From Candidatus Nomurabacteria bacterium (GTDB taxonomy: Bacteria; Patescibacteriota; Minisyncoccia; Phycocordibacterales; UBA918), in contig CP060227.1 in assembly GCA_023898525.1 (NCBI GenBank), positions 301,634-365,633 of the forward strand: a stretch of DNA of 64,000 nt. The letters run 5' to 3'. Every line of letters begins with the position of its first letter. The first letter of the stretch is position 1. Positions 23,736 through 63,913 of the stretch are shown piece by piece. The position numbers were made by a program, and so were the translations under genes. Under the pieces are notes generated by a model. That model was not told the origin of the DNA. It saw only the letters and a program-made list of their open reading frames with translations, and made no database searches.

Positions 23736-23778
23736 ACTTACATAATCCAAAATACTATATATTTTGTACGCAAATTTA

Positions 23779-23839: not shown

Positions 23840-23904
23840 CCATCGAGATGAATTTGATTTAAAATTTATCTGTACAAAGATTTTGTACCTAATCTGAAAT
23901 TGGA

Positions 23905-46647: not shown

Positions 46648-46654
46648 AATCTAT

Positions 46655-47551: not shown

Positions 47552-47631
47552 AAAAAATATATTGACAGTATAACAGCCTCAATAGTTAAATTATAGCCAG
47601 CAATTGTTAGAAACTATCCAAGATTTCACTA

Positions 47632-48288
47632 CTACTTATCTTGATTGGCCAACGAAACCAAATTCTTGTAAGCGGTATAAGGATCACTTGCTCCGACTAT
47701 CGCTGATCCAGCGATAAAACGATTGGCTCCAGCCCGCTTCAACAACAAAATTGTCTCTTGATTTACACTACCATCGATACTTATCGGATGATTAGGGAAC
47801 TTTTGTTTTATCACCTTTATTCGCTCCAAAACCCTGTCATCAAAAGATTGTCCCTGAGCGCCTATTTCAGCGATACCCATAAGTTGAACATAATCGGCTA
47901 TTTCTGCGTACGGATACAAATTCTCAAGCGGTGTGTCATTTAAAGCCGAAACACCAACCGAAACAGAAGTAGTATTTACAAAGGCTCGAAAAGACTCTAA
48001 ATTTATACTTTCAATATGAAAAACCAGCATGTCTGCACCGGCCTCTAGCCACTCCTGACCAGCTTCAATTGGATTTGTTACCATCAGATCTATCTCCACA
48101 GAACATTTAGCCGCCTCATCCCTTATTAAAAACGGTGAACCTGGTGGATTATAGGGCCAAGAAACAAAAGGTACAAACTTTCCGTCAACTACATCAATCT
48201 GTATCTCTTCCGCAAAAGATAGATTAACCAAAGACTGCTTTAGCTCTTCTTCTGACTTTGGAATAATGGCAGGAACAATTGGAATCAT
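47632..48288 (-). CDS. rpe: Ribulose-phosphate 3-epimerase-like TIM-barrel protein
   Basis: IVPAIIPKS...IQIDVVDGKFVP, ...LMVTNP, and the GSAIVGASDP phosphate-binding end. It sits in a pentose-phosphate gene cluster. Confidence 0.7.
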   Translation of the reverse strand: MIPIVPAIIPKSEEELKQSLVNLSFAEEIQIDVVDGKFVPFVSWPYNPPGSPFLIRDEAAKCSVEIDLMVTNPIEAGQEWLEAGADMLVFHIESINLESFRAFVNTTSVSVGVSALNDTPLENLYPYAEIADYVQLMGIAEIGAQGQSFDDRVLERIKVIKQKFPNHPISIDGSVNQETILLLKRAGANRFIAGSAIVGASDPYTAYKNLVSLANQDK

Positions 48289-48290
48289 AA

Positions 48291-48773
48291 TTATTTATAC
48301 AAAGACGCAACGGTTGTTTTGATCTTCCCATTACGTCGGTTATATTTCTCATCTTCAAGTACATTTATTGATAACCATTTTGTGATGGAAGACTTGACTT
48401 CCTCGACTGAAACAAACCTAGACCCAAACGACAATACGTTCGCATCATTATGCTGACGAGATAATTTTATAATTTCTTCATTCCCACCATAATAAACCGT
48501 GGCTCTAACTTCAGGATAACGGTTAGCCAACATAGCCTCCCCTTCACCCGAACCACCAAAAATAAAAGCACAGGATTCAGTTGGACTTTCATTCACAGCC
48601 AAACTAGCTAGATTAATAAAGTCAGGAAAATCATCTAGAGGATGTAGCTGGTGCGCACCATGATCTACCACTTCATAAACAGAATTCTTTAACCACTCCT
48701 TAATCGCCTCTTTATGTTCATACCCCGCATGATCAGCAGCTAAGTGAATGGTTTTTATATTCTCGACCTCCAT
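48291..48773 (-). CDS. rpiB: Ribose-5-phosphate isomerase B (RpiB/LacAB family)
   Basis: IHLAADHAGYEHKE, ...CAFIFGGSGEGEAMLANRYPEVRA. Confidence 0.82.
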   Translation of the reverse strand: MEVENIKTIHLAADHAGYEHKEAIKEWLKNSVYEVVDHGAHQLHPLDDFPDFINLASLAVNESPTESCAFIFGGSGEGEAMLANRYPEVRATVYYGGNEEIIKLSRQHNDANVLSFGSRFVSVEEVKSSITKWLSINVLEDEKYNRRNGKIKTTVASLYK

Positions 48774-48782
48774 ACATGAAAT

Positions 48783-49808
48783 TTACTTGGCAATATGTCC
48801 TGCTACCGCTCTTACGTGCTCAACCAAAGTTTGAGTGTAACTAGTTTCATTATCATACCAAGCCAAAACTTTCACTAAGTTACCGCCAACAACCTTTGTG
48901 AAAGATAAATCTGCAATTGAGCCGACCCGTGACCCAATGATGTCGCTAGAAACAATCTGTTCGGTCGTAGCTGCAAACAAATTTTTCCATCTTGGATTTT
49001 CTGCTGCATCAGCTAAAGCCTTATTTACCTCTTCTACCGTAGTGTCTTTAGACGCAATAAAAGTAACGTCAACTATTGACCCTACTGGCACCGGTACTCG
49101 CATAGCGATACCATCAAACTTATCTTTGAGTTCAGTATGAGCTAGAGTAGTAGCAATAGCTGCGCCAGTCGTGCTAGGCACGATATTGATAGCAGCTGCC
49201 CGGCCAGCTCGTAAATCTTTTTTACTAGGACCGTCAACCAATGACTGAGAAGCAGTATACGCATGAACTGTGTTTAGTACCGCTTTCTCAATTCCGATTG
49301 ACTCTTTCAAAATAGCGATCAATGGACTGGTAGCGTTAGTGGTACAAGAAGCGTTAGACGATATTTGACAGGTAGCCAGAGCATCATGATTAACCCCCAT
49401 CAACACAGTCGCTCCTGACACACCTTCGACCGGCTTACCTTTAACCGGAGCTGAAACTACAACCCTTTTTGCACCAGCATCAAGATGGGCTTTTGAACCC
49501 TCATAGGTAGTGAAAAAGCCAGTAGATTCAATTACAACATCAATATTCATATCTCGCCATGGCAATTTACCAGGCTCGCGCTCTTGTAAAAAGGTCACCT
49601 CCTTATCCTGGATGATTAACTTTCCATCTTTTTGATCCACACTAAAAGGACTCCTACCGTAGACAGAGTCATACTCCAGTAAGTAAGCCAGGCTTTCCAA
49701 ATTTCCCAGATCGTTGATTGCCACCACTTCAAAATCTGGATTACCATAGGCTAACCGAAAGAAAGTTCTTCCGATGCGACCAAAACCATTTATTGCAACA
49801 CGTACCAT
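48783..49808 (-). CDS. gap: Glyceraldehyde-3-phosphate dehydrogenase
   Basis: MVRVAINGFGRIGR Rossmann N-terminus, the catalytic SNASCTTN, and WYDNE. Confidence 0.9.
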   Translation of the reverse strand: MVRVAINGFGRIGRTFFRLAYGNPDFEVVAINDLGNLESLAYLLEYDSVYGRSPFSVDQKDGKLIIQDKEVTFLQEREPGKLPWRDMNIDVVIESTGFFTTYEGSKAHLDAGAKRVVVSAPVKGKPVEGVSGATVLMGVNHDALATCQISSNASCTTNATSPLIAILKESIGIEKAVLNTVHAYTASQSLVDGPSKKDLRAGRAAAINIVPSTTGAAIATTLAHTELKDKFDGIAMRVPVPVGSIVDVTFIASKDTTVEEVNKALADAAENPRWKNLFAATTEQIVSSDIIGSRVGSIADLSFTKVVGGNLVKVLAWYDNETSYTQTLVEHVRAVAGHIAK

Positions 49809-49873: not shown

Positions 49874-51472
49874 CTAATTATCCTCACCCCGCCTTTTTAT
49901 CAACCAAAGCAAAAATAAAATTAAAAAAGTACCTACTCCTAAATAAAAAAGTGGTGAGGTATATTTAATGGCTGTAACAATTTTATCAGGAAATACAACT
50001 TCTGGATTAGTCTGAACATTTGACACCACAAAGTCAATTTGTTTCTTTTTAGTAGCCACTACCTTGGCTTCAAAATCAAAAACCTCAACCTGCAACCTTG
50101 AAACACCAAGTACATTAAGTGGCGCTATGGTCGCTTCGTAAGCCGTCTTCTCGGTATTTAGACGGAGTAAAAAAGAATAGCTACGACGCTGATCCGTTGG
50201 ATCAAGAATGGTAACAATTATTGACTTAAGGTGTTTTGGTAGCGCTTCGTAAGGAATCCTGATAACAAACTGCTCTTGGTAAACTAAAGGAATTCTTTCC
50301 GAAGCAAAGGTATATATTAAATCTGACTGTAACAAATAAATATCCTCTCGTCCTAAAATGGAAGGTAACTCATCAGTTAACTCCGTGTTTTCAACTTTGT
50401 CCGAATCAGTTGATATGGTACCAGTAGCTGGTAAGTCATTAGTTGATTCTACCGGTGAAGAAAAAAACCGAGAAACAGATACAACCGCTCCCGATGAGAT
50501 ATTATCATTATCATCTATTACAAATACACTATAGAATTGCTTACCCGCATCTTTTAAAGCACCTTTGTCGGTCGCTCCTGCCCCTGTACCGCTGTAAATA
50601 ATTTTACCGTCATAGATATCAGCTGGGTAACTATTTGGATTCCTCACTACTCTAATTTCTTTTATCGACACCGAAGTCGGTGATTGCCATGACAAAATTA
50701 CATCATCAATATCTTGTCTGGCCTGCAATCTCAAAACATTAGGCGGTGAAAAAATCTCTGTTGTTTCCACAGTCTTAAACTGACCCGTTTTTAATATAAC
50801 CTTGTTACCAGACGGAGTAATAGCTGTAAGCTCATACCAGTAGTCGGTAGCCGGCTCTAATTCAGCCAGTATTGTCTTATGAGAAGTACTGAAGGTTTCA
50901 TTGGTGATATATCCGTCTTTATATTCATAGGTTTTACCCCATCTTATTAAGTAACGGGAAATTCCATAAGTTTGCCATTCAAGGATTGCTTTATTTGTAA
51001 AAGTTATCACCTCTATATTTTTCAACTGAACAGCCCTAGTTGATTGTGAGCCAGAATTGTTCGCAATATCGGTTGAGGTGGGAGTTGTAGGTGGTGGCGG
51101 TAAAGACAAGGTTGTAGTCGATAAAGCATTTGAGGTTGTCGACAGATTGTACGAAGTATCAAAAGCATAAACCTCATAAGTATAGGGTGTTTCAGAATTT
51201 AGTCCGCTATCACTGTAAGACGTGAGTGTGGTAGTGGCAATTGCCACACTATCACGTGATAACACATACCCACCAACCGCCAAATTATCAGTAGAGACAC
51301 TCCACGCTAAATCAATCTGTGAAGCAGTCACTGGTACAGCCGACAACAGCACTGGTGTTGTTGGGGGCTGAGTATCATCACCAACTAACGTTTTAATTGT
51401 AAATTGATCTGTAGCTGCAAAACTCGCAATCGGTGACAATGTCAACACGCAGGTTAGTATAAACTTGATCAT
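49874..51472 (-). CDS. Secreted FN3-domain surface protein with a C-terminal TM anchor
   Basis: Signal peptide, a Pro/Thr linker, at least 3 fibronectin-III-like modules (QIDLAWSVSTDNLAVGGYVL...YTYEVYAFD), a C-terminal hydrophobic helix and KRRGEDN. It overlaps the next gene by 4 bp. Confidence 0.6.
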   Translation of the reverse strand: MIKFILTCVLTLSPIASFAATDQFTIKTLVGDDTQPPTTPVLLSAVPVTASQIDLAWSVSTDNLAVGGYVLSRDSVAIATTTLTSYSDSGLNSETPYTYEVYAFDTSYNLSTTSNALSTTTLSLPPPPTTPTSTDIANNSGSQSTRAVQLKNIEVITFTNKAILEWQTYGISRYLIRWGKTYEYKDGYITNETFSTSHKTILAELEPATDYWYELTAITPSGNKVILKTGQFKTVETTEIFSPPNVLRLQARQDIDDVILSWQSPTSVSIKEIRVVRNPNSYPADIYDGKIIYSGTGAGATDKGALKDAGKQFYSVFVIDDNDNISSGAVVSVSRFFSSPVESTNDLPATGTISTDSDKVENTELTDELPSILGREDIYLLQSDLIYTFASERIPLVYQEQFVIRIPYEALPKHLKSIIVTILDPTDQRRSYSFLLRLNTEKTAYEATIAPLNVLGVSRLQVEVFDFEAKVVATKKKQIDFVVSNVQTNPEVVFPDKIVTAIKYTSPLFYLGVGTFLILFLLWLIKRRGEDN

Positions 51473-52257
51473 AGAGGTACAGCTGTTAGGGTAGAGGTCG
51501 CCACATAGTCACCAGCTATCGCACCCGCTTCACTACCAATACCAACCTTGAAATAAAGCGTGGTCGTAGCTCCACTCGGTTGGTTAGCCGCTCCCTGCGC
51601 GATGGTCTTATTAGTCGTGGACAAACCATCCCAACAAGTTAAAGCTGTACTGTTGCTACCAATGTTACAATTTGAAGTATCATTTAACCAGCGCTGGGTC
51701 ACATCATTCCCTTGCGGTGAAAAACCAAAGTAGGTATCAGTGGTTCCATACGTAAAAGACATATCTGGATCCGGTGAAGCGGTTGGAATATAGTCAGAAA
51801 TAGTATCAACCCCTTTTTGCATGGCCGGGTTATTTTCAGCAGCTATGGTCAATTGGTAACCACTAGGACTATCCGTCATAACCGAGACGCTGGTAGAACC
51901 ATTAGATTCACCTCCGGTTAGACCACCCAAACTTGTCATAACAACATCGGGTACCGTAGTTATACTAATAAAAACCTCTTGCATCTGCTGATATCCAGCT
52001 TTTAGTGAATAAGCTGAACTCGTACCTTCACCAGTAGCTATTTCGCCAGCAGTGCTCTCTAGTTCATAATTAGTAGAAGTTGATAAGCCGCCACCAAAGT
52101 TCAAACTGTCACTTTGCAATTGATAATTTGAACTGCTACGCACCTGAGCTTCAGACAAAGATAACAAACCCAAGATTATTGCGGTTAACAAAAATGATTG
52201 TATTGAACTAATAAACAAATCTCTAAAGTACATGCTAACTCCGACGTTTAAATTCAA
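51469..52257 (-). CDS. Ser/Thr/Gly-rich secreted protein with a WxL-like C-terminus (paralog A)
   Basis: Signal peptide, a beta-rich low-complexity body and conserved Cys pairs. The C-terminus LTCWDGL...GDYVATSTLTAVPL resembles the two C-terminal WxL motifs (LTWxL, ...tYtgtLtWtL) of Firmicutes WxL proteins, with Trp replaced by Ala in the second motif. Confidence 0.42.
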   Translation of the reverse strand: MNLNVGVSMYFRDLFISSIQSFLLTAIILGLLSLSEAQVRSSSNYQLQSDSLNFGGGLSTSTNYELESTAGEIATGEGTSSAYSLKAGYQQMQEVFISITTVPDVVMTSLGGLTGGESNGSTSVSVMTDSPSGYQLTIAAENNPAMQKGVDTISDYIPTASPDPDMSFTYGTTDTYFGFSPQGNDVTQRWLNDTSNCNIGSNSTALTCWDGLSTTNKTIAQGAANQPSGATTTLYFKVGIGSEAGAIAGDYVATSTLTAVPL

Positions 52258-53320
52258 ACGTCCTAAAAAAAGCTCTAATACCGAATAGTATAATAAATAT
52301 AGCTAAGAATATTCCACCAGTAACCTTCCAAGGTAGCACCCAGAAAGATACTGAAACCTCGTCCACAATATCATCATAGCCACGATTAACCAGGGCTGTG
52401 GCTGTATACCTACCAAACAGCAGCTCGCGATCCCAGGTTACAGTTCTTGAGCGGAGTGACTTAGGCAGAGCAAACCATGGGTCAAGCTCAACAAAACCAA
52501 CTTCCTCTCCCAAAATATTTTTTACCCTAAGTTCACCATAAGGATTAAGGTGGATTGACCCAGTATTCTCATAAAGTACATTCATTTCTATTGGCCCTTT
52601 TTCGTACCACCACTTACCATTAGCCAACGCTATCTCTTTAGTTTCTCCACTAGTCTTAATGTCACCTGGAACAGTGATGAAAAACAGAGTACCGACCCGA
52701 GCGATTATCGGTGACCGCGGTACATCATTATCTTCCTCACCGTTGTTTTCACGAATTGTAGAAACTAAAACACCTCCATAGTATCCACCTGGCTCAGCAT
52801 CTGGCGGTATAGTTATAGTAACAGGTATCCTGGCTCGCTCACCAAGAGATAGTGTAAATGAATCTTCTGGAAAGCTTATATAATCTTTTATGGTATACGG
52901 ACCTTTTTCATCTCCAAGTAATACGACCGAATCGCGACCATCATCAGAACCAGCGATATCCTCAACTTCAAGTTTAAAGATTCGGTCGTCACTAATACGG
53001 TTAGCCACCGATATTGGATAAACGACTGTTTCGCCAGGCTTAATTTCGAGTTCAGCCCTACCAGGACCAACTACAAAGTCACCTTGTTGAATATTATTTC
53101 CAGTTAACTGTTCAACTTCAAACCAAGGCTCTTTGTCGTTAACGCTCTCAGTCGTAGTGGCCAAAGCAGTATCTAAACCTGAGGTTGATGTATCTGTCTC
53201 AGTATTAGTTTGTGCTCTAGACGTCTGAGTTAAACTAAAAACTATGATTAGTGTTACCAGTAAAACTAATGAATAAATAACGCTGTGCTTTGTACTCTCT
53301 GAATTTGTAGTCATAACCAT
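52235..53320 (-). CDS. Signal-peptide plus C-terminal TM protein with DUF916/DUF3324-like architecture
   Basis: 361 aa. Signal/TM, two beta-sandwich-like halves (PDAEPGGYYGGVLVS; YENTGSIHLNPYGEL...FWVLPWK), then a C-terminal TM (GGIFLAIFIILFGI) and a basic tail. Its size and topology match the DUF916-DUF3324 proteins found in WxL (Csc) loci. Confidence 0.45.
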   Translation of the reverse strand: MVMTTNSESTKHSVIYSLVLLVTLIIVFSLTQTSRAQTNTETDTSTSGLDTALATTTESVNDKEPWFEVEQLTGNNIQQGDFVVGPGRAELEIKPGETVVYPISVANRISDDRIFKLEVEDIAGSDDGRDSVVLLGDEKGPYTIKDYISFPEDSFTLSLGERARIPVTITIPPDAEPGGYYGGVLVSTIRENNGEEDNDVPRSPIIARVGTLFFITVPGDIKTSGETKEIALANGKWWYEKGPIEMNVLYENTGSIHLNPYGELRVKNILGEEVGFVELDPWFALPKSLRSRTVTWDRELLFGRYTATALVNRGYDDIVDEVSVSFWVLPWKVTGGIFLAIFIILFGIRAFFRTFEFKRRS

Positions 53321-53335
53321 GTGACTACTTTATCG

Positions 53336-54034
53336 TTATTGGTTGAGTGCTGTCAAGGTTGCAGTTGCTGTGTATGTATCGGTTTCTATTGTTGGACTTG
53401 GAGAGTTTGGTACGTATACCCGAAAATTTATGGTTGTTGTGGCACCAGTAGTGGCAGCTGAACTTCTATTTATGATTTGAAATCCAGTTGTTTGCGGTTC
53501 CATCCAACAGGTTAGAGGATTACTACTTCCTGATGTGTTACAACTACCGGCTCCGTTATCTTGAAACGATTGATCAACATCAGAGGCGTTGTCAGCGGTG
53601 GCGGTGTAAGCAAAGACAGCTGAAGTACTGGCAGTATAGAAACCGTATGTTGGTTCACTACTAGAAGCAGTATAATCGTGAATTGAGGTACCGGCATAAG
53701 CATCACCCACCATAGCATTATCTGTACCATTATCGGTGAATGCAATAGACATAGTGTAGCCAGTAGAGCTGTTGGTGGTAACAACAGCTGTCGTTGTACC
53801 GTTTGATGTACCTCCAGTCACACCGTTGATGCTACCACTCATAGTGACATCAGTTGGCTGAACTAGAAACGAAATCTCTCCTGTGATAGTCTGCTTAATA
53901 GTAAAAGCGTTACTGTCTACAGCTTGACCAACTCTTGGTTCAGCCACAAAGAAAGTAGCTGCTACAAAAGTAATAATTACGAAAGATGTTAAAAGTGCTT
54001 GCCAAGCTGAATTTATATAATGATTAATATTCAT
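53336..54034 (-). CDS. Ser/Thr/Gly-rich secreted protein with a WxL-like C-terminus (paralog B)
   Basis: It is homologous to 51469..52257 (VTGGTSNGTTTAVVTTNSSTGYTMSIA vs LTGGESNGSTSVSVMTDSPSGYQLTIA). The C-terminus is LTCWMEP...DTYTATATLTALNQ. Confidence 0.42.
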   Translation of the reverse strand: MNINHYINSAWQALLTSFVIITFVAATFFVAEPRVGQAVDSNAFTIKQTITGEISFLVQPTDVTMSGSINGVTGGTSNGTTTAVVTTNSSTGYTMSIAFTDNGTDNAMVGDAYAGTSIHDYTASSSEPTYGFYTASTSAVFAYTATADNASDVDQSFQDNGAGSCNTSGSSNPLTCWMEPQTTGFQIINRSSAATTGATTTINFRVYVPNSPSPTIETDTYTATATLTALNQ

Positions 54035-54132
54035 AATGTCTATACTATATTTTTAGGTTTTACTACTCTATTATAACAAGGTTTTACTTAATATATTGGT
54101 GACAAAGTTGGGATATGGGTATAACTTGAACT

Positions 54133-57100
54133 TTATACTCTACCTCCACCTCCACCTCCCCCGCCACCAGTTTGGTGAAACACACGCACTTCAAGCGCGT
54201 CTAGGTTTATGGTATTACTTTCAGGCGTAGCGGTAACTCTTATTAAGAAGGTACTGGGTGTAAATTCAGTTGATGACCAAGTTCTCCCCCACGTATCTGT
54301 ATTACCACCAACCGTATAAACAATATCTGTTCCAGATAAAGTTGGAGTGGCCTTTCCGGTAGTGTAAGAAGAACCGCCGTCCCAGGACAAAGAAACATCG
54401 ACTGTGCCGGTAGCCGTAGTACCAGAAATATCCAGCTTTACTGCTATACCTTGTATAGTATTACTTCCAGGTATACTGAAGTTAAATCCAGTATAACTCT
54501 GACGTAAGCTACTGGTAGAAGCAGTGGCATAAACACCATCAGAATTGTAAGCGTTTTCCGGATTAGTCCATTCGTTGTTAGGAGTACCTGTGTTACTTGG
54601 ACTAAAGTAGTTGGGGCTATAAGTAATATTCTCATCATCTACATTCTGTCCTACATTACCACCTCCACCCGAACCACCACCTGTTTCCATACCGTTTCCA
54701 GGTGGAGGCGTATCTCCAGTGCGAGATGAACTTCCTCCCGAGCCTGCTGTATTTCGTATATGCTGAACCTCATCTACAGAACCGATAATAACCGGAGACA
54801 CAGCAGAAGTTGTACCAACAGATGTTATTCCGGTAACTGGTAAACTAATCGTCATTGAATCACCTCTATCTATAGAGCTTGTATTACCAATTATCAAATA
54901 ATCAGAACTGGTCGTAGCATAGAAGTCAGTACTGAAAGTAATCGCCCCGAGCTGACCATTAACAGTCATAATACCGGAGTTGTCTAACAACTCATCACCA
55001 CCATCCATTACTTGGTCATTGTTGATATCACGATATAGACGTAAAGTATCCACATTGTCGGTGTCAATTCCCTGTACTCCCCTCAAAGTGAACACAATAT
55101 CTGTGACTGTCACATCCTCTCCTGATGGATCTAAAGAGAAAGCGTATAATGCTTCATCGGTCTTATTTTGGAAACTAAACTGGTTACTTACCTGACCCAA
55201 AGTATGATTACCTAAAGTCATGGATCCGCTTATATCTATGGTTTTGGTGTCCTCCGTAATTGCAGTTGTCGTAGCTGAGCCATCTACATGCAAAGCAAAT
55301 TTACCAGATGTAGTACTGACTGTCGAAAAACTACCAACTTCTATGTTATCAATAGTCAAAGTGTCTCCGTTTACAAAATCACTAGTCACATCAATCAATA
55401 ATGTAGCTCCACCATCCTCATATGAAACAGTACTAAACACCTTCCCTGAAGCGGTTCCGCCAAATGTTGGAGTTGTTACACCAGTACTAAAATAGAAGTC
55501 GGTGGTAGTAGTAGCTATAGTAATACGAATGTCATTGGCCGCGACTATGTTGGTGCTACTAGAATTTTTAGTGATAGTAATTTGATCCAAAGTTGTGGAT
55601 GCTTGACCAACGTAGAAATTATAACTATAAACCGAAGCCAGTGTGACAGGAACATTCGTATTCCAATTAGTATTATTACCACTATCAATACAACCAGTAC
55701 CACAATTTATAGTTGTAATATTTATATTGTCCGAATCTTGCACGTCCAAATAAGCAACAGTGGTGCTGGCTCGTGGATCTATGTACCATTCTCCGGTAGA
55801 GCTACTAGAGCGTAATGATAAGAGGTTGCCGTCGGTACCGGTTAAAGTTAATTGATCTTCTATGACATAAGTTCCACCAGATGAAAAGGTTAAAGTGTCT
55901 GCGGTGGTCACTTCTTTGGATAGAGTATAAAAAGTAGTGGTGGCTGACGAGACCAGTGATTGACTGGTACCAGATAAAGTTATGGTTCCGCTAGAGTGGT
56001 TGAAGGTACCGTAGTTACTCATGTCACCGGCTACAGTAAGACTGCTTGGAGCGGTTAGAGTGGATGAAGTAGAGATGGTGAGATTGGTGGTGGAGGAGAT
56101 ATCTTGAAAAGTGACTTGACCGGTTATTATTAGGCTACTAAAATCATCACCACTAACCATGCTTCCGCTCATATTTGCCGGCACACGAAAAGACATAAGC
56201 TCACAACCAATCGCTGAACCAGCGACCTGGGAACAGGCGGTAGCATCTGCAGATTTACCAATGTAAATATTATCTCCAACCTTGATTAAGTTATTTATAT
56301 CTTCTAGTCCGGTGCCAGTACTACCACCGTTCACATCTCGCCCTGCCACGTAAATCGGGTTGGTGGTGGAGGAGATGTCGAAAACCATTAGTTCGCAGCC
56401 GTCGGCTGAGCCAGCGGTTTGCGAGCAAGCAGTAGCATTTTGAAGCTTCCCTAAATATAGATAATCACCATCCACGTAGATAGAAGTCGCATTAATATTT
56501 CCTACTCCAGTATCATCCCCTGTCACATCTCGTCCTGCCACGTAAATCGGGTTGGTGGTGGAGGAGATGTCGAAAACCATTAGTTCACAACCTCTGGCGG
56601 AGCCGGCGGTTTGGGAACAGGCGGTGATATCTCCACTTTTACTCATATATAGGTAGTTACCAGAGATTTGAATATCATACACAGCCTCTGCTTTGTTACC
56701 AGTACTAGAACCATCCACATCTCGCCCTGCCACGTAAATCGGGTTGGTGGTGGAGGAGATGTCGAAAACCATTAGTTCACAACCAATCGCTGAGCCGGCG
56801 GTTTGGGAACAGGCAGTAGGGTCTTGAGTTTTTCCTATATACAAATAATTACCCCTAATCGCTATACTATCGATATTCTCACCTCCAGTTCCTGTACTAT
56901 CACCAGTAACGTCTTGTCCTGCCACATATATCGGATTAGTCGTAGAAGAAATATCGTAGACCATAAGTTCACAACCAATCGCTGAGCCGGCGGTTTGGGA
57001 ACAGGCAGTAGTGTCAAAACCCTTCCCGATATATAAACTACTTCCAGATATTGCTAAAGACCTGATATCTAATGCAGTAGTTCCTGTACTTGAACCATCC

Positions 57101-58164
57101 ACATCTCGTCCTGCCACATATATCGGATTAGTCGTAGAAGAAATATCGTAGACCATAAGTTCACAGCCATCAGCTGAGCCGGCGGTTTGGGAACAGGCAG
57201 TAGCGTTACCAGATTTACCAACATACATATAATCACCACTTATAGCTAGTGCATACACACTATCATTACCGGCTCCGCCTGTATTATCACCCGCCGTGTC
57301 TCTTCCGGCTACATATGTAATATTAGTAGAAGATGAAATGTCATATATTTGTAACTCACAACCTCTAGCTGAGCCGGCGGTTTGAGCACAAGTATCAGTA
57401 CTAGCAGTATGTCCTACAAATAATGAGTTACCTGAGACAGCAAAAGAGTCTATCCAAATACTAGTAATTCCAGAACTAGAACCGTCAGCATCTACGCCCC
57501 CGTTATATCCACTAAGGTATGCCTGTATTTCTAAAGTCCCACTGTTATTGGTGAATGTATCAATATTCTCATAATCTCCTGAAACTATAACGGTATTAGT
57601 TGGAGCCAAAAATTCCCCCTGATTAATTAACAGATTTGCCACAATTTGAGTACTCGCACCAGAATTTGTATACAAAATATCTGTATCATCAGAACTATCG
57701 TAAAAAGAAAAATCATCACTATATAAAATATCTGTACTACTGGCTGTGTGTGATACTACATAGTTATGATAAAGAGGCACACTGGTAATATCAGACCCTT
57801 TATAACCCATCACTATCGTTGTAGCCTTATCTGTTTCACCACCAAGCCATACAGTAAAAGGTGTCGTGGTAGAAAGATTAACATCATCAATATCTGTAAA
57901 GCTCCAAGTTCCACCAGCACCAGTGGTTGCTGAGTGAACACTGACTGTAGAAGTACCAACAGCCACTTTAACAGTTTTACCAGAAGTATCAGTTGTAACA
58001 CCTTTGTCGACATAGAGCGTTCCAGATAGGGTTATGGTCGCTGCATTTACCTGATTAATATCATTAAACTGACTAAAAAAAGTAAATATGATTACAGAAA
58101 AAACAAATAGTCGCACTATGTTTGTTTGAATTATATTGATTTTTTGTATAATTTTTTTTCTCAT
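54133..58164 (-). CDS. Giant (1343 aa) secreted protein with LVIVD-like beta-propeller repeats
   Basis: N-terminal signal/TM; at least 7 tandem ~62-aa repeats (YxGK...ATACSQTAGSAxGCELMVFDISSTTNPIYVAGRDVxG...) that resemble LVIVD repeats; a Ser/Thr-rich beta-rich C-terminal half; ends in a Gly9 run. Confidence 0.7.
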   Translation of the reverse strand: MRKKIIQKINIIQTNIVRLFVFSVIIFTFFSQFNDINQVNAATITLSGTLYVDKGVTTDTSGKTVKVAVGTSTVSVHSATTGAGGTWSFTDIDDVNLSTTTPFTVWLGGETDKATTIVMGYKGSDITSVPLYHNYVVSHTASSTDILYSDDFSFYDSSDDTDILYTNSGASTQIVANLLINQGEFLAPTNTVIVSGDYENIDTFTNNSGTLEIQAYLSGYNGGVDADGSSSGITSIWIDSFAVSGNSLFVGHTASTDTCAQTAGSARGCELQIYDISSSTNITYVAGRDTAGDNTGGAGNDSVYALAISGDYMYVGKSGNATACSQTAGSADGCELMVYDISSTTNPIYVAGRDVDGSSTGTTALDIRSLAISGSSLYIGKGFDTTACSQTAGSAIGCELMVYDISSTTNPIYVAGQDVTGDSTGTGGENIDSIAIRGNYLYIGKTQDPTACSQTAGSAIGCELMVFDISSTTNPIYVAGRDVDGSSTGNKAEAVYDIQISGNYLYMSKSGDITACSQTAGSARGCELMVFDISSTTNPIYVAGRDVTGDDTGVGNINATSIYVDGDYLYLGKLQNATACSQTAGSADGCELMVFDISSTTNPIYVAGRDVNGGSTGTGLEDINNLIKVGDNIYIGKSADATACSQVAGSAIGCELMSFRVPANMSGSMVSGDDFSSLIITGQVTFQDISSTTNLTISTSSTLTAPSSLTVAGDMSNYGTFNHSSGTITLSGTSQSLVSSATTTFYTLSKEVTTADTLTFSSGGTYVIEDQLTLTGTDGNLLSLRSSSSTGEWYIDPRASTTVAYLDVQDSDNINITTINCGTGCIDSGNNTNWNTNVPVTLASVYSYNFYVGQASTTLDQITITKNSSSTNIVAANDIRITIATTTTDFYFSTGVTTPTFGGTASGKVFSTVSYEDGGATLLIDVTSDFVNGDTLTIDNIEVGSFSTVSTTSGKFALHVDGSATTTAITEDTKTIDISGSMTLGNHTLGQVSNQFSFQNKTDEALYAFSLDPSGEDVTVTDIVFTLRGVQGIDTDNVDTLRLYRDINNDQVMDGGDELLDNSGIMTVNGQLGAITFSTDFYATTSSDYLIIGNTSSIDRGDSMTISLPVTGITSVGTTSAVSPVIIGSVDEVQHIRNTAGSGGSSSRTGDTPPPGNGMETGGGSGGGGNVGQNVDDENITYSPNYFSPSNTGTPNNEWTNPENAYNSDGVYATASTSSLRQSYTGFNFSIPGSNTIQGIAVKLDISGTTATGTVDVSLSWDGGSSYTTGKATPTLSGTDIVYTVGGNTDTWGRTWSSTEFTPSTFLIRVTATPESNTINLDALEVRVFHQTGGGGGGGGGRV
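56160..57420. repeat. Near-identical ~186-bp tandem DNA repeats inside the 1343-aa gene
   Basis: Units begin at ~56334, 56524, 56714, 56900 and 57093. Long blocks are identical, e.g. ctgccacgtaaatcgggttggtggtggaggagatgtcgaaaaccattagttc x3 and atatcggattagtcgtagaagaaatatcgtagaccataagttcaca x2. Confidence 0.8.
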
Positions 58165-58225
58165 ATCTTTACTAATTTGGTTTTGTTTTTTGTTATCTAT
58201 CTAATTATATTTTTAATTTACTTTT

Positions 58226-61200
58226 TTAAGGTGACGTTTCATCTAGTTCAGAAACTTCTACTTCTGACGGACTGGAGTCTTCTACCATTTCCTCCACTAC
58301 CTCTACATTTTCTTCTTCTGTCTCGCTCATTGCAACCTCCCCACTCTCACTATCAATGTTTTCACTTTCATCATCTTTAACAACTTCTCCGACATCTTCT
58401 ACTATTAGTTCTAAATCTACTTCTGTATCATTTTCAATATTTTCTTGGTACTCACTATCCCCCTCTATGTCTGTTGTACTAGTAGAAGTGGTTGTGGTAA
58501 CAGTTTTTTCTTCATTTATCTCTTGGTCTGTATCTTCCTCTACCACTTCATTTGCACTTGTCTGTGGTGAAGTTGAATCTTCTTGAGCCTGAACCGGTTC
58601 TTCGTGAGATTTATTTATTACTTCTCTATCCTTTTCTATATTATTATTGGTATTATTTACCGGAGACTCACTCACTCTGTTAAGTAGTACTCGAAGGTCA
58701 TCAGCCCCAACACACACACCATCGACACATAGTTCATTTTGCACCTCCACCCGATCGGCTTTAAGAGTAAAGACAGAAAGTACACCGTCGATGAAATTGT
58801 TGGCTAGATTAACCAGACGCTCCCAAATAGTTACATCTGACTTAGAACCATTTGTGCTGCTAGCATTTGCCAACAAAGAATCTATAATTTTAAGCCCTTC
58901 GTCATCCAAGTAGCGGTATCCTAGATCCACAAACATTACAATCTGCCCCACCCGCACAGACTGACCGTTTTCCAAAATTTCAGTGTCGCTCTTTATGCGA
59001 GACAGCGATTCAAGTGCTTTTCTCTCCGCTTCAGCTTCAGCTAAAGCTTCCGCCTCTTTGATCTGAGCATCGGTAGTAGTTGCTTCAAGCGGTACACACT
59101 CTTCTTCTCCGGTAGCATTTCCTCCACCGTAGTAACATCCGTCGTGCATACGCGGATCCTCAACTCTGTTTATTGGTTCAAATATCGGATCAACCAAATC
59201 GTCTCCGAATTGATTAATATATGTATCTGAGTAAGCCCTAGTTTCCACAAAATCTTCCAAAGCCACACCGATTATCTTACCGGTTGAAGTCGCCTTCATC
59301 GCTACTCCTGGAATCGAAGAAAGGGTAAGCTCATCACCGGCTTTGATCGATCCGTTTTCATTTGAAAGCTTGATAGGAACACGTCCAGATAGAGCAATTG
59401 GGAACACCTCCTCTCCTTCCTCCAATGATGAATCATCATAACCCAACAAGAGACCAGGCTTGGTTGAAACCACACCGATTATTTTGTTCTTCGTATCTGT
59501 ATCCGCCCTTCCTACAGAAAGACCGCCTTTGGTATACACAATTTCTCCCGCTTCAAGATTTTCACTTGAGAAGTATGTTTCCGCAAGGTCAGAATTTCCT
59601 GTATGAGTCGATACTGATGCTATCCGTCCGGTAGTCGAAGCGTTACACGAACCGTCATTATCAACACAAAGGCCCCCATAACCAATCTGCAAACCGGCAT
59701 TATTACTGGTAGTACCATCACCAATAGTTAACATTCCGTAAGCTCCAACGGTGAACATAGAAGTTCCTGCGTTTTGCAGATCGACGAATTTTGAAGCGGT
59801 GGTTGAAGAAAATGATCCACCACTATTACCAAAATTCATTAAAAGACCCGTGCCGGTAAAGGTTGAAGTATCTTGGAATAACTTGAGTAAAGAAGCTGTT
59901 GTAATAGAAGATGAATAACCTCGAATAGCATTACCTTGTGTAGTTCCAGTTGTCTCACCAAACACACCGGCCGGCTCATACGAACCACCAGCATCACCTG
60001 AAGTGATACCCTTAACACCGAAAGTTCGCGCGTACCCTGACATAGCTGTATTTTCTCCCAAAGTGTTTGCTCCCCAGTCACTCTGAACTTCTAAACCTCT
60101 AACTGTATTTCCAAACGTCGTAGCGTCTTCTATTTTTATAAAATTACCAACCAGTGTACTAGTAGCTGTATTGGTGGCATATAGATATGACCGATCGCCG
60201 TACTGTGTAGAGCTGGCAGTGCTGTTAGCAAAGGTCAAATACCTATCTATACCCGCTACCCCGGCGTCAGCATAATTTAGATTTTCAATAGTCAGACGCG
60301 AAGCTGGAGTAGTGGTAGCAATACCAATACTTCCATCGTTTTTGATATATAACCTATCCGTGTAACTTCCGGTAGTTTGGAATCTAAAATCTCCAGTAGC
60401 GTTTGGTAATATAAAATTCATGCTACCACTAGTATCAGAACCACCTATTAGTACATTGTTAGCTGAACTCATGGATAATAAAGATTTAACACTACCCGCA
60501 TTGTCTCTAGTGGCAAGACTGTAGTTATTAGGTATAAATATATGGCCATCCACCGTCAGCTTCCTTACCGCTGTAGTAGTACCAATAGACACATCACCAC
60601 CAGAGCTCACATAAATACCCTCATCGTCTCCGTCACCTGAAAGGAAATTAGAGCCGAGAGCTATGTTAGCCGCTGTGCCGGACATGGTCAGGTTACCGGC
60701 AAATGAACCCGTGCCACTGACAGTAAGGTTTCCATCTAAGTAAGTATTGCCAGTGACAGTAAGCTTGGAAGAAGGAGTAGTACTACCAATACCAATGTTT
60801 CCACTAGATAGTGAAGTACCGGTACCATCAATACCAGTACCGAAGATAAGGTTACCTATAGATAATTGATTAGACCCAGTTGAAGAAGCGGCATCAATAT
60901 CATAACCAATTAATATATTGTTTGAACCAGTCGTGACTATGTTACCCGCTCTATAACCAAGGAATATATTATTAGAACCGGTTGTTAAAGCCTCACCGGT
61001 TTCTGAACCGAATAACGAGTTATTTGAATAAGAGTTACTAAGTACACCAATACCGGCATGGTAACCAACTGCAGTGTTGCTACTGGCCGCACTTGAAACA
61101 TAGCGCATCGCATTACTACCAACCGCCACATTTTTAGCACCGGTAGAAATATTCTGAGCCGTAAAAGCACCATAAGCTGTATTATCATCACCGGTAGTAA

Positions 61201-63913
61201 CACTTAGAGAATTGGTACCAAAAGCTGAGTTTGCACTACCGGCAGAATTACCCGCCAAAGCAGAAGAACCGAAGGCATTATTATTTCCTCCAGTAGTGTT
61301 AGAGTTTAAAGCATTAATACCAAAGGCGTTATTATATCCTCCGGTAGTGTTTAGTTTTAGAGCACTATATCCAAAAGCAGAGTTGTTAACTGAAATGTTG
61401 TTGACCAAAGCATCAATTCCGACTGCAGTTTGCGTAGTATTTATCACCATTGCACTAGCTGAATTCATGGTAATTACTCCACCGGTAGTTTGGGTAGTAA
61501 GGTTGACTACCCCTAAGGAACCATCAGCAATATTGTCTGTATAAGTAGTGGTAGAGTTATCGTTTATAGTCGTTACCAAATACATAGCCCCCCAGACACC
61601 ATCCGCATCTTTGTTACGATAAATCTTTCGTCCGGTCACGGCTGGGTCGCTAGATACTGGGATATTGGTTAGATTAATCTCTTGGGATGACGGTGATACT
61701 TGACCAGAAAGTTTACCGACCTCAGTTTCACCGGTAGCGGTAATGTAAGAAACTCGGTAGCGATAGGTGCCCGACAAACTTCCCGCCCCACCCAAGGCAA
61801 TACTTGGTGTCACGGTAGACGGTGCGTCAACTATTGAGAACCGTAAATCCCCAGCGCCGATGTCTAATTTTGCTTGTGGTGTTGAAGTACCAATACCCAA
61901 ATTAGTCCCATCAAATACTAAATCAGCATCATCCGTCACCGCAGTACCACCACTGTTAGCAAACAACAGTCGGTTAGCCGTGTATGAAGAGATGGTGTCA
62001 GAGAGACCAAGAAAAGTTCCGTCTCCTAGACCGAGGGTAGAGGTAGAGATCCAGTCAGTGCCGGTGCCGGTTGAGGAGAGAATTTGGCCTAAGGTTCCAG
62101 AGGCGTTAGAAGAGTCAAATAGTGCTCCAGTGATGAAAGCGTCGCCAGCAACGGTAAGCTTTGAAGACGGCGTGGTGGTGCCGATGCCGATGTTTCCGTT
62201 ATTGAGAATTTTCATAACAGGGTTTGAGGTAGAACCGATTTCAAACTGTATGACACCAGAGTCATTAGGGACACCCAGTATCATACTGCCGCTAACTGTA
62301 GATCCGTTTATGAGAACATTGTTAGCTGAAGTCATGGACAAGAGAGAAACATTGTTAGCAGAAGTATCTCTAGTCATAAAACTATAATTATTTGGAATAT
62401 AGATACTTCCATCCACATTAAATTTAGCCACGTCAGTTGTGGTACCGATAGAAACATCACCAACGTTATTTACATAAATACCCTCATCATCACCATCGCC
62501 GGAGAGCCAATTAGAACCAAGGATGATATTAGCCGCAGTACCAGACATAGTTAAACTATCAGAAAAAGTACTTGTGCCGGCTACGGTCAAATCTCCTTCT
62601 AGGTAAGTACTGCCAGTAACTGTAAGTCTGGAGGATGGAGTAGTGGTGCCGATGCCGATGTTGCCAGCAGAACTTATAGTAGTAGTTGCTGTTCCGTTAA
62701 CAAAATTTAGAGAACCATTACCCCAACCGACAACAGCATCATCTTGGTTGTGGAAAAATTCTATATAGTCATCAACCTGACCCTCGTCTGAAGAATAAAC
62801 ACGGAAAGTCGGGTTGTCAGTATTATTACTTACTATTCTGTTATCATTCCGTTCTCCCAAAATAAAATATCCACTAGTGTTTAAATAACCTCCTACTCGG
62901 GTTTCAGCAACCATCGCTTCATAACCACCGCTATTTCGATAAAGAAATCTTGCCGTGGATTGAGAACCTAAAGTAAAATCAATATTATCATTCAGAGCTA
63001 AAGCACTGTTAAATAATATACCGGCACTACTTCCGTTTAAGGTATCTTGACCCAATGTAATAAAATACTGATGATCAGTACCTATGTTTAAACACTGGTT
63101 ATAAGTACTACCACTTCCACACAATCGAATATCTCCATTGGTATCATTTTCTATGTATTCATCGTTGGCTAAAGTCGTCGTTCCCGATAAAGAGGTTACA
63201 CCAGAAACAGTCAGATTACCTGACGTATCAACATTTCCATCAAAGTAAGAATTACCAACAACTGTCAGCTTACTGTCTGGTGTGGTGGTGGCGATACCAA
63301 CGTTGCCATTGTTTAGGATGGTGAACATTTCTGTAGCACCTGCAAACAAACTTAGTATCTTACCTGCACCATTTTGAATTAAGGTCAAAAGAGCAGAACT
63401 ACTTGTAGCCTCCATAGTGTCAGCATCATCTGCGCGCAAGAAAGAAGTGGTAGCAAAACCATCAAAGGTGTTAGCATTCTCTGCAATAAACGCTGCCGGT
63501 ACCGCGCCCAGCACTTTTCGAGGAGACATTTCGCCGTCCCAACTTGGTGTACCAGTTCCTCCAATCTCCACACCCAAGTAAAGGGACTGGTCGAAATCTA
63601 CCGAACCCAAGGAAGACACGTCACCGAGCATGACTGAGAAGAGGCCGTTAGTGACAGTCACCTTATTTACTCCCGTTCTGGCCTCAGACCAGATAGCGGT
63701 TGAAGTAGCTGCCGTACTGGAAGACAGTAGCCAGAAATTCATGTTGTAGTCACCGTCTGCTACCGCCACGCCAACAGAATCAGTTAGTTTACCTTGGTAA
63801 TTTATCTCCTGATTGAACTGTGCCAAAGAGACAAAAGGAGAAACCATAAAAGCAAAAACCAGCACTAGTGTGCTTATCATGAAAAGTATTTTGTTTGGAA
63901 GCAAAATTTTCAT
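58226..63913 (-). CDS. Giant (1895 aa) secreted protein with tail-fibre/YadA-head-like beta-roll repeats and an acidic C-terminal tail
   Basis: Signal peptide (ISTLVLVFAFMVSPFVSLA); repeated NIGIGTTTPSSKLTV(T/A)G modules; ~15-residue NxA(F/I/V)Gxx(A/S)xxxxTTGxx repeats (NNAFGSSALAGNSAG, NTAVGYHAGIGVLSN, NNIFLGYRAGNIVTTGS...). There is an internal ~350-aa duplication (TAANIILGSNWLSGDGDDEGIYV / TAANIALGSNFLSGDGDDEGIYV), and the last ~150 aa are strongly acidic (E/D/S/T-rich). Confidence 0.7.
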   Translation of the reverse strand: MKILLPNKILFMISTLVLVFAFMVSPFVSLAQFNQEINYQGKLTDSVGVAVADGDYNMNFWLLSSSTAATSTAIWSEARTGVNKVTVTNGLFSVMLGDVSSLGSVDFDQSLYLGVEIGGTGTPSWDGEMSPRKVLGAVPAAFIAENANTFDGFATTSFLRADDADTMEATSSSALLTLIQNGAGKILSLFAGATEMFTILNNGNVGIATTTPDSKLTVVGNSYFDGNVDTSGNLTVSGVTSLSGTTTLANDEYIENDTNGDIRLCGSGSTYNQCLNIGTDHQYFITLGQDTLNGSSAGILFNSALALNDNIDFTLGSQSTARFLYRNSGGYEAMVAETRVGGYLNTSGYFILGERNDNRIVSNNTDNPTFRVYSSDEGQVDDYIEFFHNQDDAVVGWGNGSLNFVNGTATTTISSAGNIGIGTTTPSSRLTVTGSTYLEGDLTVAGTSTFSDSLTMSGTAANIILGSNWLSGDGDDEGIYVNNVGDVSIGTTTDVAKFNVDGSIYIPNNYSFMTRDTSANNVSLLSMTSANNVLINGSTVSGSMILGVPNDSGVIQFEIGSTSNPVMKILNNGNIGIGTTTPSSKLTVAGDAFITGALFDSSNASGTLGQILSSTGTGTDWISTSTLGLGDGTFLGLSDTISSYTANRLLFANSGGTAVTDDADLVFDGTNLGIGTSTPQAKLDIGAGDLRFSIVDAPSTVTPSIALGGAGSLSGTYRYRVSYITATGETEVGKLSGQVSPSSQEINLTNIPVSSDPAVTGRKIYRNKDADGVWGAMYLVTTINDNSTTTYTDNIADGSLGVVNLTTQTTGGVITMNSASAMVINTTQTAVGIDALVNNISVNNSAFGYSALKLNTTGGYNNAFGINALNSNTTGGNNNAFGSSALAGNSAGSANSAFGTNSLSVTTGDDNTAYGAFTAQNISTGAKNVAVGSNAMRYVSSAASSNTAVGYHAGIGVLSNSYSNNSLFGSETGEALTTGSNNIFLGYRAGNIVTTGSNNILIGYDIDAASSTGSNQLSIGNLIFGTGIDGTGTSLSSGNIGIGSTTPSSKLTVTGNTYLDGNLTVSGTGSFAGNLTMSGTAANIALGSNFLSGDGDDEGIYVSSGGDVSIGTTTAVRKLTVDGHIFIPNNYSLATRDNAGSVKSLLSMSSANNVLIGGSDTSGSMNFILPNATGDFRFQTTGSYTDRLYIKNDGSIGIATTTPASRLTIENLNYADAGVAGIDRYLTFANSTASSTQYGDRSYLYATNTATSTLVGNFIKIEDATTFGNTVRGLEVQSDWGANTLGENTAMSGYARTFGVKGITSGDAGGSYEPAGVFGETTGTTQGNAIRGYSSSITTASLLKLFQDTSTFTGTGLLMNFGNSGGSFSSTTASKFVDLQNAGTSMFTVGAYGMLTIGDGTTSNNAGLQIGYGGLCVDNDGSCNASTTGRIASVSTHTGNSDLAETYFSSENLEAGEIVYTKGGLSVGRADTDTKNKIIGVVSTKPGLLLGYDDSSLEEGEEVFPIALSGRVPIKLSNENGSIKAGDELTLSSIPGVAMKATSTGKIIGVALEDFVETRAYSDTYINQFGDDLVDPIFEPINRVEDPRMHDGCYYGGGNATGEEECVPLEATTTDAQIKEAEALAEAEAERKALESLSRIKSDTEILENGQSVRVGQIVMFVDLGYRYLDDEGLKIIDSLLANASSTNGSKSDVTIWERLVNLANNFIDGVLSVFTLKADRVEVQNELCVDGVCVGADDLRVLLNRVSESPVNNTNNNIEKDREVINKSHEEPVQAQEDSTSPQTSANEVVEEDTDQEINEEKTVTTTTSTSTTDIEGDSEYQENIENDTEVDLELIVEDVGEVVKDDESENIDSESGEVAMSETEEENVEVVEEMVEDSSPSEVEVSELDETSP

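Follow-up and report, generated by a model that had tools for sequence, protein, structure and literature searches.

Two filaments of Candidatus Mycosynbacter amalyticus, which belongs to the Saccharimonadia within the Candidate Phyla Radiation (CPR), have been solved and the pam operon has been defined (Troman et al. 2026, bioRxiv 10.64898/2026.03.03.709456). The Pam pilins PamA, PamB, and PamE consist of an N-terminal domain (NTD), a donated linker strand, and a truncated immunoglobulin (Ig) C-terminal domain (CTD); the NTD has nine strands in two-domain major pilins such as PamA and PamB, and the donated linker is the most conserved region of these proteins. PamT is a single-domain tip pilin, PamC and PamD are PapD/FimC-like chaperones that keep a C-terminal transmembrane (TM) helix, and PamR, an FN3 protein resembling RbmA, has a TM helix at its C-terminus and, at its N-terminus, a strand for which a pilus-capping role is predicted; a tail fiber-like protein is a conserved neighbor of the operon (10.64898/2026.03.03.709456). 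The same paper makes no mention of WxL or DUF916 proteins, or of Paceibacteria. Here a minus-strand locus is compared with these systems; it lies in a 64-kb window (the whole stretch of DNA analyzed) on the 1.09-Mb contig of a Candidatus Nomurabacteria metagenome-assembled genome of the class Paceibacteria (locus tags H6779_01535 and H6779_01530). The locus is considered, with a probability of roughly 0.6, to encode an usher-free surface fiber built by donor-strand complementation, a minimal Paceibacteria form of the Pam type that is often accompanied by giant adhesins.

The other close comparison is with the WxL (Csc) clusters of Bacillota. WxLIP proteins are composed of DUF916, DUF3324, and a TM helix; the commonest cluster encodes one WxLIP with two WxL proteins, and AlphaFold2 (AF2) predicts that a WxLIP hairpin provides the strand that completes the WxL β-sandwich (Hassan et al. 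2023, PMC10599100). By analogy, this insertion can be regarded as donor-strand complementation in all but name; the Protein Data Bank (PDB) entry 9i25 is titled ‘WxLIP bound to long WxL’. No paper connecting the WxL and Pam systems was found in the searchable literature.

Organization of the Locus

The locus consists of six minus-strand open reading frames (ORFs), from upstream to downstream g1895, g1343, g232, g361, g262, and g532, all of which were found where the first-pass annotation of this DNA had placed six co-oriented genes. Its description of a secreted, surface-displayed set of proteins is borne out by N-terminal hydrophobic signal segments (Sec-type) on all six products and by a C-terminal TM helix followed by a basic tail in g361 and g532. 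One cysteine pair is found in each of g232 and g262, and many paired cysteines are found in the two giants, g1895 and g1343. The start of g262 is placed at ATG 52233 by homolog alignments and by the NCBI annotation, giving a PamT-like pilin of 254 amino acids (aa) at 51469-52233 on the minus strand; from an upstream TTG the gene would span 51469-52257 and encode 262 aa. Of the intergenic distances first listed, the 15-bp gap and the 4-bp overlap stand, while an overlap of about 23 nucleotides (nt) holds only from the TTG start and becomes a 1-nt spacer from the ATG.

With this start the spacers along the locus are 61, 98, 15, 1, and -4 nt. AT-rich spacers set the giants apart, and the last four genes, g232-g361-g262-g532 (hereafter the cassette), are separated by only 15, 1, and -4 nt, the start codon of g532 overlapping the stop codon of g262 (ATGA); given these spacers, the four genes are packed like a translationally coupled operon. 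Conservation of the cassette was followed in 80 loci from a scan of species-representative genomes, labeled Nomurabacteria, Kaiserbacteria, Paceibacteria, or Parcubacteria, with some carrying the generic label ‘Saccharibacteria’. The order 232-361-254-532 on one strand is kept in all 80 species-level loci wherever the contig reaches far enough, and Kaiserbacteria contigs show the same order. The core genes are thus conserved together, and their separation in relatives, first named as a finding that would count against the reading, is not seen. The cassette genes are annotated only as ‘hypothetical protein’.

Pilin-Like Proteins g262 and g232

The g262 protein contains a signal peptide, a region of about 55 aa with three SxNYxL repeats, and an Ig-like pilin domain with a conserved cysteine pair. 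The repeat region (51982-52134, minus strand; SSNYQLQSDS.., STNYELEST.., SSAYSLKAGYQQM), hereafter the SNY region, is a candidate linker with one or more donor strands; it is the most conserved part of the family, with many columns invariant or nearly so across 76 species. The AF2 model of g262 has a predicted local distance difference test (pLDDT) score of 78, with a well-folded β domain at residues 85-254 (pLDDT >90); the 55-residue SNY region that precedes this domain is disordered in the monomer model. The one NCBIfam match of g262 is NF058579, ‘CPR-type pilus protein PamT’ (E 3.4e-9, residues 24-145), at 36.5 bits against a cutoff of 240, which on sequence grounds would indicate distant homology and not equivalog status. 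An exhaustive profile search recovers relatives of g262 in 1337 clusters at 50% identity, and the typical identity of the 254-aa pilin is about 60%. Among 50 diverse relatives, the PamT model matches 40 (best E 1e-14), Pam_pilin_C matches one, and the Pfam WxL model matches none; a hidden Markov model (HMM) for TafC, from haloarchaeal tafi, matches six, and these matches were set aside as evidence of pilin homology, as they probably stem from a laminin-G domain and not from the pilin module. Sequence searches of the pilin families against the PDB return nothing significant.

Lectin-like domains are a recurrent addition to pilins of the g262 type. In two loci (L020:6221-8074 and L051:10996-12798) the pilin in the place of g262 measures 617 and 600 aa and has its fold interrupted by a DUF2341/Laminin_G_3 (ConA-like lectin) module, at insertion points that differ between the two; N-terminal lectin-like domains are present on many further g262 relatives. 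The lectin modules of pilins at this position fit an exposed, adhesive placement of g262.

The second small protein, g232 (53336-54034, minus strand, 232 aa), is a candidate fiber-forming subunit; as was first noted for this pair of about 250 aa each, it is a paralog of g262, with 35% identity over 170 aa (E 8e-22). It contains a signal peptide, a conserved N-terminal strand, and an Ig-like pilin module with the conserved cysteine pair C165/C176, and it occupies the same position in the loci of about 70 species. A pilin-module HMM matches g232 at E 6e-55, a value that is not independent since g232 and its relatives were included when the model was built; g232 has no match in Pfam, in NCBIfam, or, by sequence, in the PDB. 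The candidate N-terminal donor strand comprises residues 44-58, FTIKQTITGEISFLV (53861-53905, minus strand), and is conserved across 70 species at F44 (68/70), [IV]46 (70/70), Q48 (63/70), I50 (67/70), E53 (69/70), and F56 (67/70). This strand aligns with the third SNY repeat of g262, the alignment being anchored on a common ‘DV.M...G.TGG.SNG’ block. Taken together, g262 is a distant PamT homolog with an Ig fold like that of chaperone-usher pilins, and g232 is its paralog.

In one related locus, two tandem g232-type pilin genes (L061:2776-3480 and L061:3513-4199) lie upstream of the chaperone gene, which suggests that the candidate shaft pilin can be duplicated.

The Chaperone Candidate g361

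The g361 protein (52235-53320, minus strand, 361 aa) is a membrane-anchored, WxLIP-like (DUF916) chaperone candidate with two Ig domains. Its AF2 model (pLDDT 85) features a signal/TM helix at residues 8-31, a disordered Thr-rich spacer, β-sandwich domains at approximately 68-190 and 206-328, and a C-terminal TM helix at 331-360. Homologs fall into 1473 clusters, the best 120 of which are all at least 60% identical to g361 and 328-370 aa long, except for one outlier of 596 aa; across the 80 loci identity ranges from about 45 to 75%, typically about 60%.

A DUF916/DUF3324-like character had been proposed for g361 from its size and topology. The DUF916 part is upheld in size, topology, sequence, and structure; the DUF3324 model (PF11797) has no match in g361. 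By sequence, PF06030 (WxLIP_PGBD, DUF916) matches g361 itself at E 0.0024 and 43 of 47 family members at E ≤0.01 (best 2e-6), all below the gathering score of 27.3; the g361 family profile reaches the crystal structures of EfmWxLIP1 in the PDB, 9i1y and 9i25_C, at E 3.3e-5. By structure, Foldseek ranks the same two entries first (E 2e-11 to 1e-10, approximately 280 columns, both domains), followed by RbmA and then by the chaperone-usher chaperones CfaA, EcpB, Caf1M, and DraB; target-normalized template modeling (TM) scores are highest for these four chaperones, at 0.49-0.54. The g361 protein is therefore a WxLIP (DUF916) homolog, two-Ig-domain and membrane-anchored, that is shaped like the chaperones of chaperone-usher systems, and on its model it is equally a candidate PapD-like membrane-anchored chaperone; the model shows the PapD/FimC-like two-domain architecture with a C-terminal TM helix that is seen in the Pam chaperones.

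The candidate donor strand of g361 is a loop at residues 140-151, GPYTIKDYISFP (52868-52903, minus strand), which the HMM alignment pairs with LPFDVRDVLLIA of EfmWxLIP1. The loop is nearly invariant across 77 species (G140 and P141 77/77, Y142 73, [ST]143 77, [ILV]144 72, [KR]145 73, D146 71, P151 70) and is mostly irregular, with almost no regular secondary structure in the AF2 model.

A separate 577-aa protein, P0246, carries an N-terminal WxLIP_PGBD (DUF916) match (E 1.4e-5) and a C-terminal g262-like pilin module in one polypeptide; this is a natural fusion of chaperone and pilin or else the result of reading through the 1-nt junction between the genes.

The Anchor Candidate g532 and a Common Strand Motif

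The g532 protein (49874-51472, minus strand, 532 aa) is an FN3-repeat protein with a C-terminal TM anchor and a candidate PamR-like terminator/anchor; it is found in every locus that reaches that far. The FN3 assignment, first made from the sequence alone, is marginal in Pfam by itself (24.7 bits against 25) and is secured by the g532 family profile, which finds FN3 structures in the PDB at positions 35-134 (E 1e-23) and again at approximately 160-271. The TM helix spans residues 504-527 and is followed by KRRGEDN; the N-terminus displays a short strand and then a PPTTP linker. The strand at the mature N-terminus, residues 24-33, FTIKTLVGDD (51374-51403, minus strand), is a candidate capping donor strand and is conserved across 72 species at F24 (68/72), [IV]26 (69/72), [RK]27 (50/72), G31 (53/72), and D33 (72/72), as are P37 (72/72) and P40 (71/72). 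In its architecture g532 would fit the description of PamR, RbmA-like with FN3 domains, a C-terminal TM helix, and an additional strand at the N-terminus.

After the signal peptide, g232 starts with ..NAFTIKQTITGEISFLV and g532 with ..TDQFTIKTLVGDD and then PPTTP, both conserved in about 70 species. Across the window’s 44 ORFs (18,876 aa) there are five occurrences of the motif [FY][ST][IL]K: once in each core protein (g232, g361, g262, and g532), at the candidate strand sites, and once in g1895. In the remaining 14,251 aa the motif does not occur (Fisher p 1.4e-4, for a motif chosen post hoc), and each core site is conserved in about 70 species. A motif common to chaperone and subunits is what a chaperone-usher-like system would predict, as the chaperone donor strand there mimics the N-terminal extensions of the subunits.

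Comparison with Pam Pili

The cassette resembles the Pam system in several respects. Both are from CPR bacteria and encode Sec-exported Ig-fold pilins with donor-strand logic and paired cysteines; both encode PapD-like two-domain chaperones with a C-terminal TM helix, g361 being likened to PamC and PamD by description. PamT is a sequence homolog of g262; g532 would be the counterpart of PamR, to judge from its FN3 domains, C-terminal TM helix, and N-terminal strand, and a tail fiber-like neighbor is common to both systems. The SNY region is the most conserved part of the g262 family, as the donated linker is of the Pam pilins.

The systems differ in that the cassette has one chaperone rather than two and four genes rather than seven or more; two-domain (NTD + CTD) major pilins like PamA, PamB, and PamE have no counterpart here, where only two small pilins are encoded, although longer pilin forms exist in relatives elsewhere. 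The ATP-synthase, CorB, and MFS neighborhood of pam likewise has no counterpart at this locus, and the cassette comes from the class Paceibacteria and its chaperone bears a detectable DUF916/WxLIP signature. The view that a comparable module in a reduced-genome bacterium had not been described is now outdated, as the Pam pilus of a CPR bacterium was described in 2026 (10.64898/2026.03.03.709456).

Comparison with WxL Clusters and Other Fibers

The WxLIP of WxL/Csc clusters (PDB 9i1y and 9i25) is matched by g361 in length (range 337-365 aa), topology, DUF916 signal, and two-domain structure; as in these clusters, a single WxLIP-like gene lies between the genes of two small secreted paralogs. 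In the WxL systems the partner’s β-sandwich is completed by a WxLIP strand, and long variants of the partner carry host-binding domains. The cassette differs in its phylum, in having no DUF3324 HMM match, in having an additional FN3/TM protein, and in lacking a small LPXTG-anchored (CscD-like) protein, which is present in the canonical cluster L084. LPxTG-like strings in g532 (at 347) and g1343 (at 1108) are internal and unconserved with no sorting signal after them, and were rejected as sorting signals.

The partners g232 and g262 also differ from WxL proteins, although their C-termini had been proposed as WxL domains; this assignment is not sustained. Neither protein matches the Pfam WxL domain (PF13731), so two WxL proteins of the kind found in a typical cluster are not seen, and neither contains a W-x-L motif. 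For a WxL family alignment, a reference cluster carried by an Enterococcus plasmid (large WxL, LPXTG, small WxL, WxLIP) was taken as the starting point; against this alignment the pilin profiles reach hhalign probabilities of 0.4-1%; the control, the g361 family against a single WxLIP sequence, is also weak at 2.4%, indicating low power, so that the negative result is carried mainly by the HMM, motif, and Foldseek comparisons. Among the top Foldseek hits of the pilin-like model the long-WxL chain of 9i25 does not appear, and a pairing of C-terminal strands at low stringency (G.Y.ATxTLTA with TYTTTIVWNL) is not significant. As an analogy, the WxL cluster appears mechanistically apt, since a WxLIP completes the WxL β-sandwich by strand insertion (PMC10599100), while membership of g232 and g262 in the WxL family is not borne out.

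The proteins could nevertheless form a static complex of the WxL/Csc kind, in which g361 would permanently hold g232 and g262 at the membrane or cell-wall surface by strand complementation, with no polymerization and no fiber; this is a serious rival, though an unlikely one. It would account well for the best sequence and structure matches of g361, which are to WxLIP, for the 1+2 count that the cassette has in common with the commonest WxL cluster (PMC10599100), and for the absence of NTD-bearing major pilins from the window. It accounts less well for g232 and g262, in which HMM, hhalign, motif, and fold comparisons detect no WxL character and which resemble polymerizing pilins and PamT; a second TM-anchored protein with a pilin-like N-terminal strand, g532, is also hard to explain if g361 is the anchor, and the cassette has no LPXTG protein and no sign of peptidoglycan binding. 

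Other described fibers are more distant from the Pam-type fiber proposed here. CPR bacteria are monoderm. The Gram-negative chaperone-usher pili (including the archaic and alternate Csu, CupE, and CFA/I types) differ from the cassette, for which there is no outer membrane, no usher, and no sequence similarity; their chaperone is soluble whereas that of the cassette is membrane-anchored, and the terminator here would be a TM-anchored FN3 protein. A classical chaperone-usher pilus is accordingly not indicated, as the six proteins have no usher-like Pfam match and the chaperone candidate is TM-anchored. A sortase-dependent pilus is not indicated either: g232 and g262 end in ..TLTALNQ and ..TLTAVPL with no C-terminal sorting signal, and no sortase match is found in the locus or in the ten downstream genes scanned. 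The usher-free donor-strand fibers TasA/TapA, archaeal threads, bundling pili, cannulae, and haloarchaeal tafi (PMC11821415) have no dedicated two-domain chaperone and differ from the cassette in polarity and in the source of the donor strand.

Giant Proteins g1343 and g1895

Two giant secreted proteins are encoded upstream of the cassette. In g1343 (54133-58164, minus strand, 1343 aa) the LVIVD repeats first recognized from the sequence alone are confirmed by Pfam (E 1.4e-9; 37.5 bits, with a gathering score of 20.2); these repeats have paired cysteines, seven pairs being at i/i+10 spacing, and are accompanied by further β-rich domains. The protein ends in a conserved ‘..LDALEVRVFHQ-Gly9-RV’ tail (54136-54213). 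Giants of this type in seven other loci (L008, L016, L026, L043, L052, L054, and L072) likewise end in an ‘..LDALEVRV[YF]HQ’ strand, 7-10 Gly residues (some with Ser or Ala), and then RV, I, II, AI, or DI; in L057, L062, L078, and L080 the poly-Gly stretch is followed by a hydrophobic or amphipathic tail of approximately 35-60 aa. From its sequence, the poly-Gly end looks like a sorting, processing, or anchoring signal.

The larger giant, g1895 (58226-63913, minus strand, 1895 aa), has no Pfam match of its own. Its description as a β-roll protein finds no support, and a tail fiber-like character is seen only through its homologs, which contain Beta_helix/NosD in some cases and Peptidase_S74 in a Kaiserbacteria ortholog; a PHROGs search of the giants gave one weak match with no assigned function. 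The protein’s N-terminal domain is marked by ‘INYQGKLTD’, units of ‘GNIGIGTTTPSSKLTV’ recur along the chain, and the C-terminal tail is acidic. Its N-terminus is kept in all five complete homologs as well as in the window protein, and giants of this type (63764-63817 here; L030, L034, L050, and L081) open after the signal peptide with ‘xINYQGKLTDxxGxAVxDGxYNMxFxL’; the string ‘NYQ’ is common to this N-terminus and to the first SNY repeat of g262. ‘INYQGKL’ is probably the first strand of a folded, conserved domain of about 100 aa rather than a donor strand, and this N-terminus may have a docking role. The middles of the giants are variable and their termini conserved. Both proteins are candidate accessory adhesins, g1895 alternatively being a candidate tail fiber- or tail spike-like protein.

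Of the 55 loci with sufficient sequence, 37 have a giant gene (at least 1000 aa, or cut by a contig end) immediately upstream and on the same strand, mostly one of the g1343 or g1895 type; the giants are thus frequent but accessory. This arrangement, together with the conserved C-terminal strand and poly-Gly of g1343-type giants, the conserved N-terminal domain of g1895-type giants, the variable middles of both types, and the tail fiber-like neighbor in the Pam paper, would also suit a mounting device, in which a short g262/g232 stalk anchored by g532 presents the 1343-aa and 1895-aa adhesins as its functional tips. Such a device is improbable, as neither giant contains a pilin module or a clear donor strand, about one third of species have no giant beside the cassette, and in some species a lectin domain is present on the pilin itself.

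Neighboring Genes and Collinearity

Downstream of the cassette there are always genes for GAPDH, RpiB, Rpe, a transketolase whose N and C halves are encoded separately, and a divergent PfkB kinase (45664-49808; L001-L003). It could be argued from the conserved order of this block, and from promoter and terminator scans that are uninformative, that the cassette proteins are unrelated secreted proteins kept as neighbors only by the high collinearity of Paceibacteria genomes, but this is very improbable given the spacers of 15, 1, and -4 nt including the ATGA overlap, the complementary chaperone-like, pilin-like, and anchor-like folds, a common strand motif confined to the cassette proteins and g1895, and the joining of a DUF916 domain to a pilin module in P0246. 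The gene overlaps, together with folds that complement one another, speak for a functional unit.

Proposed Mechanism and Points Against It

In the proposed Pam-type fiber, the pilins would be exported through Sec and g361 would remain in the membrane. The GP-Y-[ST]-[ILV]-[KR]-D-Y-I-S-F-P loop of g361 would insert into the incomplete β-sandwich of a pilin and stabilize it, as WxLIP is predicted to do with WxL and as PapD does with Pap subunits; the N-terminal [FY]-[ST]-[ILV]-[KR] strand of the next pilin would then displace the chaperone strand by donor-strand exchange, so that the fiber would grow from its base. The g262 protein would be distal, in some species with its ConA-like lectin insert, and g232 would form the shaft. 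The FTIK strand of g532 would cap the last pilin and its TM helix would tie the fiber to the membrane, as proposed for PamR. The upstream β-helix and LVIVD giants, present in about two thirds of species, would be co-expressed host-binding adhesins. As it usually lies beside giant adhesin genes, the cassette is a probable host-attachment device.

Several points weigh against this fiber. It rests on sequence comparison, AF2 models, and analogy with other systems; the models are of monomers, and the open pilin groove and the strand insertions are inferred. The 64-kb window contains no two-domain major pilin, g262 and g232 being its only pilin-module ORFs and both being without an NTD; with no PamA- or PamB-like pilins in the window, a long filament is not assured. 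At 36.5 against 240 bits, and over its N-terminal half only, g262 falls short of curated membership in NF058579 (PamT), and that of NF058581 (Pam_pilin_C) is not reached; no Pam-specific NCBIfam model for chaperone, anchor, or pilin matches g232, g361, g532, or their families. For the pilin fold the best Foldseek E-value is a marginal 1.9e-3, and the [FY][ST][IL]K motif was defined post hoc from sequences already inspected. The WxLIP of Firmicutes is seen as a lasting partner at the surface and not as a transient chaperone, and we know of no fiber or filament in WxL systems. No ATP synthase neighborhood of the pam kind is seen at the locus, and no giant lies upstream in about one third of loci. 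The downstream housekeeping block is collinear from Nomurabacteria to Kaiserbacteria and conserved as well as the cassette, so that gene order alone is weak evidence of functional coupling.

Other Features of the Window

The remainder of the window is ordinary chromosome, with RpoB, DnaE, SMC, RF, S2, EF-Ts, and pentose-phosphate genes; besides g262, g232, and g361, the 64 kb contain no other pilin-module or chaperone-like ORF. Promoter and terminator scans give no more matches than chance would produce. A perfect extended -10 element, TGTTATAAT, lies at 54070-54078 (minus strand), approximately 35 nt upstream of the g232 ATG and without a good -35; it is a consensus match only, and could represent a separate promoter of the four-gene cassette within the 98-nt spacer. 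A patch of low GC content at 22001-24000 (0.31 against about 0.41 elsewhere) holds two ORFs without Pfam match (22407-22901 and 23177-23695) beside the gene of a VTT-domain membrane protein. A second candidate surface protein, unlinked to the locus, is encoded at 26675-29545 (minus strand); it is a large secreted-type protein of 956 aa with a DUF11 repeat.

Significance for Paceibacteria and Related Systems

The locus is best filed as a minimal Pam-type donor-strand pilus with a WxLIP-type chaperone that is widespread in Paceibacteria. Few CPR lineages are as abundant or as poorly understood as the Paceibacteria, and we know of no characterized host-attachment machinery from them; the cassette is strongly conserved, with more than 1,000 protein clusters, and its recognition as Pam-type provides a testable candidate for an attachment organelle. 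The range of the Pam system is thereby extended to another class, and the stripped-down form may show its minimal parts list. Through the resemblance of g361 to WxLIP in sequence and structure, CPR pili become linked to the WxL adhesion clusters found in enterococci, listeriae, and lactobacilli, and the common strand motif offers a direct handle for experiment.

More tentatively, and as a possibility that is doubtful at present, the WxL clusters of Bacillota, the Pam pili of Saccharimonadia, and the Paceibacteria cassette may belong to one ancient superfamily of usher-free donor-strand-exchange systems of monoderms, each a ‘membrane-anchored chaperone plus anchor’. The cassette would be its minimal four-gene form, with one [FY]-[ST]-[ILV]-[KR] strand code in the chaperone loop, the pilin N-termini, and the FN3/TM terminator, and its short fiber, carrying hypervariable giant adhesins or acting alongside them, would fix the ultrasmall Paceibacteria to their hosts. 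If this were true, WxL proteins would become pilin-like subunits and WxLIP a pilus chaperone.

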